Source: a phage. From it: a stretch of DNA of 64,000 nucleotides. The notes below the pieces were generated by a model. It made no database searches. It saw nothing but the letters and a program-made list of their open reading frames with translations, and had not been told where the DNA came from. Position 1 is the first letter of the stretch, and each line of letters starts with the position of its first letter. The stretch lies in the sequence record PV730302.1; one strand, 5' to 3'. Below are positions 7,374 through 22,653 of this stretch, piece after piece. A program made the translations under genes and the position numbers.

Positions 7374-7897
7374 TGCATTCCTATCACAAAGAACAGAGGC
7401 AAAGGCTTGTCGCCTTGGCACATAAATTTATTAATCATTACCTGGTAAGCTTCATAGAACTTATCCATCGCTGGAAGGCGCATTGGCTCTTCGATAATAA
7501 TCAATAATCGAGTAACAGATAGTCCACGATACTTATGGAAATTGTCTTCATCAAGGAAACTGCGCACAGTATCATAGACAACAAAACCAGGACCTTCGAC
7601 TTGGAGATGTGGGTGTGCCTTAGAAACCTGTTTTATTACATTACAAATTTCTCGCGAGCGATGCGAAGAACTCGACATAACAATCACATCATTACCCTTG
7701 GAAACCCAATCAGCGGCGAACTGAGCAAGGGCACTTGTTTTACCTGTTTGGCGTCCGCCATCAAGTCGAAGAGTACCAAACTCTTGCATTCTTGAAGCAG
7801 GTTCATACCATGTGTATTGGTCTGAGTCTAAACGTTCAATGGCGCGTTCAGCGAAGGCGTGCATTAAGGTTAGATAAATGGGAGTTAAAAATTTCAT
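7370..7897 (-). CDS. P-loop NTPase-like protein
   Basis: 175 aa; Walker A GRQTGKTS. Confidence 0.5.
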   Translation of the reverse strand: MKFLTPIYLTLMHAFAERAIERLDSDQYTWYEPASRMQEFGTLRLDGGRQTGKTSALAQFAADWVSKGNDVIVMSSSSHRSREICNVIKQVSKAHPHLQVEGPGFVVYDTVRSFLDEDNFHKYRGLSVTRLLIIIEEPMRLPAMDKFYEAYQVMINKFMCQGDKPLPLFFVIGMQ

Positions 7898-7932
7898 AGT
7901 AGTCTCTTAGTGGTGGGGCCATTCCTTGGCAC

Positions 7933-7961
7933 ATAATTCGTCCATGTATCCGTATGTAAAC
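7933..7961 (-). promoter_or_regulatory. possible early promoter (GTTTAC -35, weak -10) without the conserved cassette core
   Basis: minus-strand GTTTAC-N17-AATTAT upstream of ORF 7370-7897. Confidence 0.3.
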
Positions 7962-8057
7962 CCTTTACCGCACTTGGGCTCGACCTTATTACAGGTAGGG
8001 AAAGGTCCATCACTCAGAGGACGCGACGTTCATGAGGAGAGGGCCGGCTTGCCTTTA

Positions 8058-8357
8058 TTAGAAAGAACCAGAACCTCTAATTGTGTTCTGGCGACCTTTA
8101 TTTTCTAATTCATAGTCGTCGATTTCGTAGGCTTGTGCTACACCAAAAGCCTTTTTAACTTTAGCTAAAGAGCCTTTAGACGTAACAATATTAAAAGTAT
8201 TACCTTTGGTAAAATCAACCAAATCCACTTGTACACCCTGTTTACCGAGGCTTGCTACAATAGCATCAACATATTCCTGGTCTAAATTGCCTTGAACTCC
8301 AATTTGAAATACTTTAGGAGCTTTGGCTTCTGTAATAAATTCTTGGTAAGTTTTCAT
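8058..8357 (-). CDS. internal-protein-like (capsid targeting sequence MKTYQEFITE)
   Basis: 99 aa; N-terminal 10 residues match the T4 IP capsid targeting sequence with an I-x-E cleavage motif; paralog of 21257-21565. Confidence 0.7.
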   Translation of the reverse strand: MKTYQEFITEAKAPKVFQIGVQGNLDQEYVDAIVASLGKQGVQVDLVDFTKGNTFNIVTSKGSLAKVKKAFGVAQAYEIDDYELENKGRQNTIRGSGSF

Positions 8358-8399
8358 ATTATTCCTTAAGTTGGTAGAAGTATTCTATCACGGATTTAA

Positions 8400-8816
8400 T
8401 TAAGCGTAAATCGCCTTACCATAATGTTTGTACCAGGTAGGGCGTTGTGCAATTTTTTCGTCCAAACGGGCTTGTGAAATGGCGATAGAAGCTTCGTGAG
8501 GAACATAATCATCACGGAATTCCTGAGGAATGTCACTAATGTCCTGGACAGTAGTATCCTTGATATTAAAACCACGTTTTAAACATTCGGCTATAAGCTC
8601 AATTTGTCGCTTACGTAAAAATTCAAGCTTATCGTAAAAGAATGTAACATGGCCTGTGCCAAGGATAAAAGTAGGACTGATTTTGAAATCACGGACACGT
8701 TTACCATTAGCAACATGCTTACGAACTGCACCGAAAACACGTGGTAATTCACGATATTCAGCCATTAAGTGTTGGTCAGCCAATTCAGATACTAAGGTAA
8801 GGTTGATACGAGTCAT
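8400..8816 (-). CDS. denV: endonuclease V, pyrimidine-dimer DNA glycosylase
   Basis: 138 aa; [31 protein letters not shown]... essentially identical to remembered T4 EndoV. Confidence 0.95.
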
Positions 8817-8832
8817 TTTTAATCTCCTGTAG

Positions 8833-8872
8833 TTGATAGGTCTATAGTATCATGACTACAGGAGATGTAAAC
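8833..8872 (-). promoter_or_regulatory. early promoter/stem-loop cassette upstream of denV
   Basis: same architecture; inverted repeat CTCCTGTAG/CTACAGGAG brackets the -10. Confidence 0.7.
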
Positions 8873-8896
8873 AACTTTTATCAAGTATCGGCTTTA

Positions 8897-9575: not shown

Positions 9576-9974
9576 TTATTTGTAGGTCTTCATCCAATTC
9601 TTGAACAAAGCCGCGACGTCTTTCTCTTTAACGTTCAGTTTAATGTCCAACATTTTACCACCGGCAGCACGTGTCTGACGAATCTTAGCAGTACCGGTTT
9701 CGCCATTCCACTCAACATAATACTGCCCAGTGTTCATTGCAATACCATCGCCGTAGTCTTCATTTTTAGAAGTTGTGAAGGCCAGCTTCATAGTCTTAGA
9801 TACACGAGCCTGCATGCCAGTCTGAAGGGCATTACGAACGCGAATAACTTGAGGAGTGGCCTGGGTCAGGTTCTCATTCAGTTCTTCAGTGAACTCTTCA
9901 GATTCAAACATCGCCAAAAGTTCTTTAGATGCAGGAATTACATTCTCTGCGATAAATTCATTATAAGTTTTCAT
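9576..9974 (-). CDS. internal-protein-like ([13 protein letters not shown]), ipII/ipIII locus
   Basis: 132 aa; CTS at N-terminus; immediately downstream of e. Confidence 0.7.
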
Positions 9975-18843: not shown

Positions 18844-19308
18844 TTATTTGATTTGTTTAGCAGACCAGATACGGTCTTTGATGATTTTCTGAATATCTTC
18901 AACATACTCTAAGTCGTGAGCATGCGGATTATCTTTGAAGCTATGTGCTCGTGCTAGTTTCTGGCCTTCTGTTTTGATTACTAAAAGCTCTTTAAGAATT
19001 GCTTCATACTTAGAAATAATTCCTTTGGCGATATTTTTTTCTTGAGCGGCTTTAGGGTCTGCTTTTGTAGCAGGTGCTTTACCTGTAGCTTTCTGGAACA
19101 ATTCACCTGATGCAGCTAGGCTTTTAAAAACTCGGCTAACAGTATTAGCATTAGTAAAACCTTCGGCTTTAAAATCTCTAATAAAACGGAAACGTTCTTC
19201 ATCAGAGGCGTCTTTGTAAGAATATTTACCTGCTTGAATTGCTGCAATCGCAGCGGCTTTTACATCTGAACTAGATTGTTCAGTCAAAAATTCATTGTAA
19301 GTTTTCAT
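18844..19308 (-). CDS. internal-protein-like (CTS MKTYNEFLTE)
   Basis: 154 aa; N-terminal CTS-like decapeptide. Confidence 0.65.
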   Translation of the reverse strand: MKTYNEFLTEQSSSDVKAAAIAAIQAGKYSYKDASDEERFRFIRDFKAEGFTNANTVSRVFKSLAASGELFQKATGKAPATKADPKAAQEKNIAKGIISKYEAILKELLVIKTEGQKLARAHSFKDNPHAHDLEYVEDIQKIIKDRIWSAKQIK

Positions 19309-19758: not shown

Positions 19759-19833
19759 TGGTATCCCGCCCTGGGATCGAACCAGGACCGCAAACTTAGA
19801 AGGATCGTATGCTATCCATTACACCAGCGGGAC
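19759..19833 (-). tRNA. tRNA-Arg (anticodon TCT), CCA encoded
   Basis: manual fold of minus strand: 7-bp acceptor stem, T-loop TTCGATC, anticodon loop CTTCTAA. Confidence 0.85.
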
Positions 19834-19838
19834 ATAGT

Positions 19839-19915
19839 TGGTGACCCGGACCAGATTTGAACTGGTAACCTTTCCCTTATGAGGGGACTGCTTCTAACCA
19901 TTGAGCTACAGGGCC
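19839..19915 (-). tRNA. tRNA with CAT anticodon (elongator Met or lysidine-type Ile), CCA encoded
   Basis: manual fold: acceptor GGCCCTG, T-arm ACCAG-TTCAAAT-CTGGT, anticodon loop CTCATAA; 5 nt from tRNA-Arg. Confidence 0.8.
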
Positions 19916-20600: not shown

Positions 20601-21002
20601 TTAACCCTCGTCTACAATAGTATGGGTATTAGCATTAACAATCTGCCACCAGTCAAAACGATCGGAGCCGTAAAGAAACTTATTCTCGTTTTCTTTAACA
20701 ATTTCACGTAGTTCATCTTCAGTGGCAGCTTTAGCGATTAAATCGGTATAGCCACCACGTGGATAGTAGTTATCACCCGCGAACAGAAGGAAATTTACTT
20801 TACCAGAAGGAACATATGCTTCCTTAGGATACTTGTTTCCTGCTTGGTCTACCACTTCAATATAACGGTAAGGAATATCGGTACTTTCAACCCATTGCCA
20901 AGCTGCAGCAGGGGATTCAAAAGCATCTACACCTAAACGGTTATCTTCATCTTTAGACGGATTATTTTCATAATCCGCATATGCATAATATTCAACGTTC
21001 AT
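20601..21002 (-). CDS. hypothetical protein
   Basis: ORF track 133 aa. Confidence 0.5.
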   Translation of the reverse strand: MNVEYYAYADYENNPSKDEDNRLGVDAFESPAAAWQWVESTDIPYRYIEVVDQAGNKYPKEAYVPSGKVNFLLFAGDNYYPRGGYTDLIAKAATEDELREIVKENENKFLYGSDRFDWWQIVNANTHTIVDEG

Positions 21003-21187
21003 TATTCACCTTTAGAGATTTTATCCATAACGATAGCGATTAAGCCGATTAGAAATGCTACTACCAATGAGATAGAATTTTCTGTTGTTGTCAGTAGTCC
21101 ACAAATGAATCCTACAAACATCGAAAAACTAAAAGCCATTGAAGCAATTACTACAGCAACATTACGAATCAGTTCAGCGCGTTTCAT
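21002..21187 (-). CDS. small membrane protein
   Basis: 61 aa, one to two TM helices; promoter cassette upstream. Confidence 0.4.
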   Translation of the reverse strand: MKRAELIRNVAVVIASMAFSFSMFVGFICGLLTTTENSISLVVAFLIGLIAIVMDKISKGE

Positions 21188-21204
21188 TTTATTCTCCTCA
21201 GTAG

Positions 21205-21244
21205 TTGATAGGGTAATAGTATCACTACCCTATCTAAAAGTAAA
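21205..21244 (-). promoter_or_regulatory. early promoter/stem-loop cassette (variant core TTGATAGGGTAATAGTATCA)
   Basis: GTTTAC at 21239-21244 in minus sense. Confidence 0.55.
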
Positions 21245-21256
21245 CGGTTTTATAAA

Positions 21257-21565
21257 CTATTTTATTCCGCGTGATGCAATCGTATTCTGCCGTTTAACGC
21301 CAGTTTGTTTAAAGTTATGATTGTCGAGTTGATCGGTACGAGCAACTCCGAATGATGATTTAATCTTAGCTTTAGATCCTTTAGTTATAGAAATAAACAT
21401 CTCGGGAGCCCCTTTCTTAAAGTCCGAAGCAATTACTTCAACACCGTTCTTAGCAAGTGACCTCAGAATTGCTTCCACATACTCATCATCAAGACCCGCT
21501 TGAGTATGAATAACGAATGTCTTTGGTGCAGCCGCTTCATTGATAAATTCTTTATAGGTTTTCAT
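21257..21565 (-). CDS. internal-protein-like (CTS MKTYKEFINE), ipI-like position next to 57B
   Basis: 102 aa; CTS; paralog of 8058-8357 with shared motifs along the whole length. Confidence 0.7.
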   Translation of the reverse strand: MKTYKEFINEAAAPKTFVIHTQAGLDDEYVEAILRSLAKNGVEVIASDFKKGAPEMFISITKGSKAKIKSSFGVARTDQLDNHNFKQTGVKRQNTIASRGIK

Positions 21566-21584
21566 TTTATGTTCCTAATTAATT

Positions 21585-21625
21585 TTGATGAGATAATAGT
21601 ACCACAACCCTATTTAAAAGTAAAC
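21585..21625 (-). promoter_or_regulatory. early promoter/stem-loop cassette (variant)
   Basis: GTTTAC at 21620-21625 in minus sense. Confidence 0.5.
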
Positions 21626-21898
21626 TCATTTTAAATAAATTGCATACTTTTTATAACCGGCCGTTTCGTGACGCAGCCCTTTTTCATTAGCAAAACGTTC
21701 AATATTGTTAATTTGATTCTGGTCGAGTTCTGAAGTATCAAATACAAAAAAGTTTCGCTTATTGCCTAAAGTTACGTGATTAGTCAAATCGATGTTATAG
21801 AGATGATTTATATCATCAATCATAGTCTTAACAGATTTGTTAATTTTTACTTCCTCATTAAGAATAGATTCAGCGATAAATTCTTGATAAGTTTTCAT
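21626..21898 (-). CDS. internal-protein-like (CTS MKTYQEFIAE)
   Basis: 90 aa; exact match to the canonical CTS decapeptide. Confidence 0.65.
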   Translation of the reverse strand: MKTYQEFIAESILNEEVKINKSVKTMIDDINHLYNIDLTNHVTLGNKRNFFVFDTSELDQNQINNIERFANEKGLRHETAGYKKYAIYLK

Positions 21899-21924: not shown

Positions 21925-21964
21925 TTGATAGGTCTATAGTATCATGCCTATAGACCTTGTAAAC
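21925..21964 (-). promoter_or_regulatory. early promoter/stem-loop cassette (core TTGATAGGTCTATAGTATCA)
   Basis: GTTTAC at 21959-21964 in minus sense; inverted repeat GGTCTATAGG/CCTATAGACC. Confidence 0.65.
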
Positions 21965-21975
21965 ACCTTTTTAAA

Positions 21976-22653
<678 letters not shown>

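Follow-up and report, generated by a model that had tools for sequence, protein, structure and literature searches.

Two related internal-protein genes, 13 kb apart in a single phage genome, raise the question of whether one was copied from the other in that genome or whether each arrived with a history of its own. The case considered here is a 64,000-nt stretch of phage record PV730302.1, given as one strand and called the window; open reading frame (ORF) coordinates are window positions. The two ORFs are both present on the minus strand and are named ip7A (8058-8357, 99 aa) and ip7B (21257-21565, 102 aa). An initial annotation described them as full-length paralogs and suggested that they arose by duplication and relocation. 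The paralogy is confirmed, and a different origin is favored. The explanation preferred here, which is considered probable as a whole, consists of an old split of the Ip7 family between two loci, a recent lateral import of the module at the ipI locus, and gene products that would be packaged and injected as anti-defence proteins.

The phage is a T4-type, JS98-like member of the genus Dhakavirus, and the window covers its early-gene and internal protein (IP) region. Its nearest records are MX01, UGJNEcP3/4, QL01, and WG01, with about 95-98% nucleotide identity in pieces. The T4 gene order is kept, comprising vs.8, denV, ipIII, e, tRNAs, trna.2-4, IP genes, 57B, 57A, and gene 1.

Homology of ip7A and ip7B

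BLASTP aligns the two proteins with 51 identities in 100 positions (E 1e-30), from residue 1 to at most two residues from both C-termini, and the motifs listed in the initial annotation are visible in this alignment. The similarity is not confined to the N-terminal capsid-targeting sequence (CTS), because 43 of 90 residues (48%, E 5e-24) are still identical once the 10 CTS residues are removed; the relationship is thus end to end, as had been claimed. At the nucleotide level the ORFs are 58.6% identical. Six ORFs in the window begin with MKTY..EF (at 8058, 8897, 9576, 18844, 21257, and 21626). When these are compared all against all without the CTS, ip7A and ip7B are the sole related pair, and all other comparisons have E > 0.5.

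By profile comparison, both proteins belong end to end to PHROG 2667 ("internal head protein"), which is the Ip7 family. Residues 1-99 of the ip7A product match positions 1-101 of the 101-position profile (E 2e-42), and residues 1-102 of the ip7B product cover the whole profile (E 3e-41). Invariant core motifs beyond the CTS are seen in the family alignment. The name Ip7 is used in GenBank for RB15, RB32, CC31, VR7, and MX01; no mention of it was found in the phage literature searched. None of the six window ORFs with a CTS has a significant family match in Pfam. T4 IPI and IPII were considered as identities for the two proteins and are ruled out, as their alignment is limited to the CTS.

Capsid-targeting sequence

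The T4 prohead protease cleaves by an (I/L)-x-E rule. The CTS of ip7A (8328-8357, minus strand) comprises codons 1-10, MKTYQEFITE, with I-x-E at residues 8-10 and a predicted prohead-protease cut before Ala11. That of ip7B (21536-21565, minus strand) is MKTYKEFINE, also codons 1-10 and with I-x-E at the same residues. Both satisfy the IP-type consensus MKT(Y/F)(Q/K)EF(I/L)xE and align with the N-termini of T4 IPI and IPII. The site at residues 8-10, the predicted gp21 cleavage motif, is the single L/I-x-E in each protein. All members of the Ip7 family, including distant ones, retain a CTS with I-x-E. T4 internal proteins are packaged via the CTS, injected, and regarded as a diverse anti-restriction set (PMC3012670). 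T-even phages have two variable IP loci (PMC2839356; PMC12373910), and gene maps of the window, MX01, and T4 place ip7A in one (the denV/ipII/ipIII region) and ip7B in the other (the ipI region by 57B).

Distribution and phylogeny of the Ip7 family

A tblastn search of the family against 50,697 phage records finds it in 284 of them, at only 288 places, and one copy per genome is the rule. The two-copy records identified are two of MX01 and one of Tequatrovirus LYE-01, and these explain three of the four extra places. The ip7 gene that adjoins vs.8 in LYE-01 is an allele of the Klebsiella-phage type. The two-copy states of MX01 and LYE-01 indicate that co-residence arose at least twice. An exhaustive profile search of 1.84 billion representatives yields only six proteins, all with CTS-like starts. 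Judged from these searches, the family is confined to T4-like phages.

A neighbour-joining tree was built from the window ORFs, database cluster representatives, and genes from annotated loci, with the first 10 (CTS) columns excluded and 200 bootstraps. It separates two clades in 200 of 200 replicates, and the separation follows the locus, with each clade spread across several genera. The vs.8-side clade contains Dhakavirus, Gaprivervirus VR7, Marfavirus EI, and the Jiaodaviruses JD18 and KPV15. The ipI-locus clade contains Tequatrovirus RB32, Karamvirus CC31, Moonvirus Moon, the Mosigviruses mogra and phi25-307, the window, MX01, and WG01. Two deep, locus-bound clades mean that ip7A and ip7B are old paralogs and did not arise by a recent duplication. 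The two subfamilies may go back to an ancient duplication, of which the flanks show no trace.

The ipI locus and the imported tract

The ip7B gene belongs to the ipI-locus subfamily of PHROG 2667 and lies in the hyperplastic ipI locus, between ip9 (21626-21898) and trna.4 (21002-21187). It had been placed next to 57B, which is at 21976-22431 and is not its immediate neighbor; the position given for ip7A, beside denV, is correct. Over residues 12-102 (tblastn), the ip7B product is 100% identical to WG01 gp144, 98.9% to its counterpart in Mosigvirus phi25-307, and 91% to RB32 Ip7; over its full length it is 98% identical to the WG01 cluster representative P0022. The nearest known Ip7 proteins of the ipI slot are 88-99% identical and share both the gene order 57B-[ip5]-ip9-ip7-trna.4 and promoter cassettes in direct repeats of about 43 bp. 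Unlike these, ip7B is set in a Dhakavirus backbone, where most relatives do not have it.

The similarity to phi25-307 extends beyond the gene. A tract of about 590 bp at 21003-21589 (minus strand), holding ip7B, a cassette, and trna.4, has 14 mismatches to phi25-307, and only four of these fall in the 515 bp across 21018-21532; mismatches stop at 21590. Nucleotide identity is 97.1% in ip7, 100% in the ip7-trna.4 spacer, and 97.3% in trna.4, whereas outside the tract it is 71% in 57A, 73% in 57B, and about 65% in trna.3 and trna.2. In the promoter cassette upstream of ip7B, the left edge falls after the -10 box and before the Shine-Dalgarno sequence; the right edge is the trna.4/trna.3 junction. 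Against Tequatrovirus RB32, ip7 is 92% identical, and 57B, ip9, trna.4, trna.3, and trna.2 range from 62 to 80%.

Comparison within the genus gives the reverse pattern. Dhakavirus IME08 has no ip7, and its ip9 is followed by one cassette and then by trna.4. The window is 96.5% identical to IME08 in 57B, 95.7% in ip9, 90.1% in trna.3, and 93.3% in trna.2, but only 67.2% in trna.4. A tract that is 97-99% Mosigvirus-like between flanks of 65-73%, together with a trna.4 that diverges from IME08, argues that ip7B was acquired laterally. On nucleotide comparison, the ip7-cassette-trna.4 tract is a foreign module in a Dhakavirus backbone. MX01 retains an IME08-type cassette upstream of ip7, and WG01 has RB32-like sequence into the 3' half of ip9; these left junctions, which differ between MX01 and the window or WG01, indicate that crossovers differ between lineages.

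Promoter cassettes and mobility

Early promoters of the form GTTTAC-N17/18-TAnTAT precede ip9, ip7B, trna.4, denV, ipIII, and other genes. The cassette upstream of ip7B (21580-21626, minus strand; GTTTAC...TACTAT) has a degenerate stem with a fold of -1.9 kcal/mol and holds the left breakpoint of the tract. The downstream cassette (21200-21246, minus strand), which drives trna.4, comprises a promoter and a perfect stem. Perfect stems of 9-10 bp occur in the cassettes at 21963 and 21244, with folds of -17.2 and -16.4 kcal/mol, respectively. The cassettes that flank ip7B (21624 and 21244) are direct repeats, 78% alike, and correspond to the "43 bp direct repeat" of the RB32 GenBank note.

The shuffling of promoter early stem-loop (PeSL) elements is the closest known system. 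ORFs flanked by PeSLs excise and form mini-circles, and the crossovers fall between the -10 box and the ATG (Arbiol et al. 2010; PMC2839356), and analogous promoter-based elements occur at both variable T-even IP loci (Repoila et al. 1994, as cited in PMC2839356). The ip7B module resembles PeSL and T-even cassette shuffling (Repoila 1994; Arbiol 2010; Comeau 2014) in its promoter and stem-loop boundaries, its presence or absence in close relatives, and a breakpoint between the -10 box and the start codon. It differs in that the tract also includes trna.4 and ends at the trna.4/trna.3 junction instead of at a cassette, and in the degenerate stem of the upstream cassette. Presence/absence polymorphism among close relatives, with junctions in cassettes, is found for this module, and the sequence comparisons support a cassette-bounded mobility of ip7B.

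The proposal that cassettes mediated the relocation therefore holds in one part only. They bound the mobile ip7 module at the ipI locus, and the same comparisons do not support a cassette link between ip7A and ip7B. The ip7A promoter and the ip7B cassette are 53% identical, the lowest value among all cassette pairs, and the ip7A promoter is 53-64% identical to the other cassettes. The downstream flanks of the two genes are unrelated (47%), and the flanks share nothing beyond the promoter consensus. Dispersed early-promoter cassettes (GTTTACATCTCCTGTAG.C.TG.TACTATAGACCTATCAACTACAGGAG) are also observed at 2457, 6376, 8871, 18186, and 21963 on the minus strand; they are 76-91% alike across 20 kb and are potential substrates for ectopic recombination.

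The vs.8/denV slot

The ip7A gene (PHROG 2667, vs.8-side clade) lies between denV and vs.8. Its product is 100% identical to MX01 gp111 and 90-100% identical to JS98 ORF112c and to the "ip7" proteins of VR7, VR20, and VR26 (Dhakaviruses and Gapriverviruses), which occupy the same denV-vs.8 slot and differ in nothing material. The VR7 GenBank note reads [quoted passage not shown], which means that homology between the two loci is already on record. As in the window, an ip7-like gene adjoins vs.8 in VR7, EI, JD18, KPV15, and LYE-01. Against Gaprivervirus VR7, nucleotide identity is 92% for ip7A, 94% for the ip7A-vs.8 spacer, 90% for vs.8, and 72% for denV. The first three are alike in VR7 and denV is not, which indicates that ip7A travels with vs.8. 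In the preferred explanation, the vs.8-side ip7 and vs.8 move together in Dhaka-, Gapriver-, Marfa-, and Jiaodaviruses.

The early-type promoter of ip7A (8382-8410, minus strand) comprises TTTACG, 17 nt, and TAGAAT; it overlaps denV at its 3' end and lacks a strong stem-loop. With no stem-loop at its promoter and no downstream cassette, ip7A is not a cassette-bounded module of the PeSL type.

T4 ipII was also considered for the gene at 8058 and is rejected by alignment; the gene is moreover on the vs.8 side of denV, and not in the slot between denV and ipIII that ipII occupies in T4. In the window that slot is an 80-nt spacer (8817-8896), which contains no ipII and holds one promoter cassette only. 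MX01 carries an ipII between denV and ipIII that is near T4 ipII in nucleotide alignment. Its presence in MX01 and absence from the window indicate that ipII is itself a present-or-absent module. In WG01 (L009, 1136-1761), two other CTS-bearing ORFs of 258 and 360 nt replace ip7A between vs.8 and denV. Since the slot can be filled by different CTS-bearing ORFs, it is itself a variable IP slot in Dhakaviruses.

The 160-nt spacer between ip7A and vs.8 (7898-8057, minus strand) has 51% GC, compared with 40% for the window. It is conserved at the nucleotide level with T4, whose annotation assigns it to the first 44 or so amino acids of Vs.8; in the window this frame is broken in three ways. Vs.8 of LYE-01 begins at MRTFLTG, which suggests that the N-terminus of T4 Vs.8 is over-extended in the annotation. 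A 17-mer, GTGCCAAGGAATGGCCC, at 7916-7932, some 20 nt ahead of the ATG of vs.8, hardly varies among seven phages that represent five genera or more, and the same words (MCQGMAP...) are found upstream of ip7-like genes in Klebsiella phages. A permissive Rfam scan of 7800-8500 finds no RNA family at the spacer, and the RNA fold of the GC-rich segment 7890-8062 is no better than that of shuffled sequence (z 0.13).

Origin of the two-copy state

A recent duplication in this genome, after which one copy moved 13 kb by way of shared promoter cassettes, would account for the full-length homology of the two genes, and early-promoter cassettes are indeed scattered over the region, some of them 80-91% alike. 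The copies, however, are just 48-51% identical in protein and diverge to a similar degree in nucleotide sequence. Each gene has much nearer relatives in other genera than its partner in the window: the ip7B product is nearly identical to that of a Mosigvirus, and ip7A groups with the VR7 gene. The clades follow the locus in every bootstrap replicate. The cassettes upstream of the two genes are the least similar pair of all, and most genomes carry a single copy. Duplication and relocation in this genome, as first proposed, are thus not borne out, and such an origin is very unlikely. An older duplication, in an ancestor of the Tevenvirinae, could have been followed by differential loss in place of lateral gain, with both copies kept in the window phage. 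The range of each clade, which covers several genera and is bound to one locus, fits this history, and the direct repeats around ip7B could delete the gene, as PeSL excision predicts. Retention nevertheless cannot account for a tract with 97-99% nucleotide identity to a Mosigvirus between flanks of 65-73%, nor for the same tract being the part that diverges from another Dhakavirus. Loss instead of gain is consequently improbable, although less so than a recent duplication, and the founding duplication itself may hold, as it is compatible with lateral import.

The two ORFs may also be doubted as packaged proteins. They could be ordinary early accessory proteins with a CTS-like N-terminus, or decaying gene copies; the packaging of Ip7 proteins is a prediction, and no late promoter is immediately upstream of either ORF. 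Yet each is an intact frame with its own promoter and Shine-Dalgarno sequence, and both are 85-100% conserved in many phages. The CTS with I-x-E is kept even in distant family members, and both ORFs are situated in the two classical IP loci. There is accordingly little chance that they are unpackaged or decaying. The explanation that remains favored is the old two-locus split with lateral import, in which ip7B would have reached the Dhakavirus lineage recently through recombination with a phage of the Mosigvirus or Tequatrovirus type. The imported module would consist of ip7, an early-promoter stem-loop cassette, and trna.4, and its left breakpoint would lie inside the early-promoter cassette.

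Predicted properties and function

The predicted mature proteins have 89 aa (ip7A) and 92 aa (ip7B), with a pI of 8.2 and 9.9, respectively. AlphaFold2, supplied with a 23-sequence alignment, gives a beta-alpha-beta-beta-alpha-beta core and a C-terminal helix (pLDDT 77, pTM 0.69). The sole significant match of this model in BFVD is Ip7 of MX01. A sequence-profile search of the PDB returns only chance DARPin-like matches, and no structural likeness of Ip7 to a known restriction inhibitor was found. The function is therefore read from context.

Like the ip7A and ip7B products, T4 IPI, IPII, and IPIII (Ip1-3) are small, have an N-terminal CTS, and are encoded at the two genomic IP loci. By analogy, the presumed cycle of packaging, cleavage, and injection would also be shared, as would the presumed anti-restriction role. 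On the model of IPI-III, the CTS (MKTY[Q/K]EFI[T/N]E) would direct Ip7 into the prohead core, the prohead protease would cut after Glu10 to leave a basic protein of about 9.6-10 kDa, and the mature protein would be packaged with the DNA and injected. T4 Ip1, Ip2, and Ip3 each block one type IV enzyme of the GmrSD type, and the same has been proposed for other IP-locus genes (PMC12373910). An injected anti-defence role of Ip7 is likely by this analogy; a GmrSD-specific anti-restriction role is plausible, with the balance somewhat against it. In that case ip7A and ip7B, having diverged, would act on different targets, such as separate type IV enzymes of the GmrSD type. A further and rather speculative suggestion is that the subfamilies are variants, differing in specificity, of a single injected anti-restriction protein with a ferredoxin-like fold, each directed at a different variant of host defence, and that phages with two copies gain host range.

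Other features of the window

Two further CTS-bearing ORFs are present on the minus strand. Located between e and ipIII, the ORF at 9576-9974 (132 aa, PHROG 15461) is annotated only as "hypothetical protein" in the listed records and shows conservation in Dhaka- and Marfaviruses; it probably encodes a so far unnamed internal protein. The five final codons read MKTYK, a promoter cassette comes right after the stop, and this terminal motif may be a recombination scar of another CTS. The ORF at 18844-19308 (154 aa, PHROG 2280) starts with MKTYNEFLTE, lies outside the two classical IP loci, and is a candidate internal protein. At gathering thresholds, Rfam reports two tRNAs only in the whole window and nothing near ip7A or ip7B. 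The two tRNA genes lie at 19762-19915 (minus strand), and the equivalent region of IME08 has three (Arg, Asn, and Met).

Significance

Earlier descriptions already cover the Ip7 family, its two loci and their homology, and the shuffling mechanism; MX01 and WG01 have annotated proteins that are identical or nearly so; and the exchange of modules across genera is ordinary biology for T4-like phages. Beyond annotation the significance is small. The gene at 8058 is ip7-like and not ipII, which this genome does not carry, and the ip7A/ip7B pair is a clean small example of the cross-genus exchange of an IP module at a promoter cassette. If Ip7 proteins are restriction inhibitors like T4 Ip1-3, genomes with both subfamilies would help to map inhibitor specificity and to select phages of broader host range. 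If the subfamilies are indeed specificity variants, phages that obtained both by cross-genus capture, such as the window phage, MX01, and independently LYE-01, would gain host range. Ip7 would then become the fourth IP family to have a target, and would offer a natural system in which to study the diversification of paralogous inhibitors.
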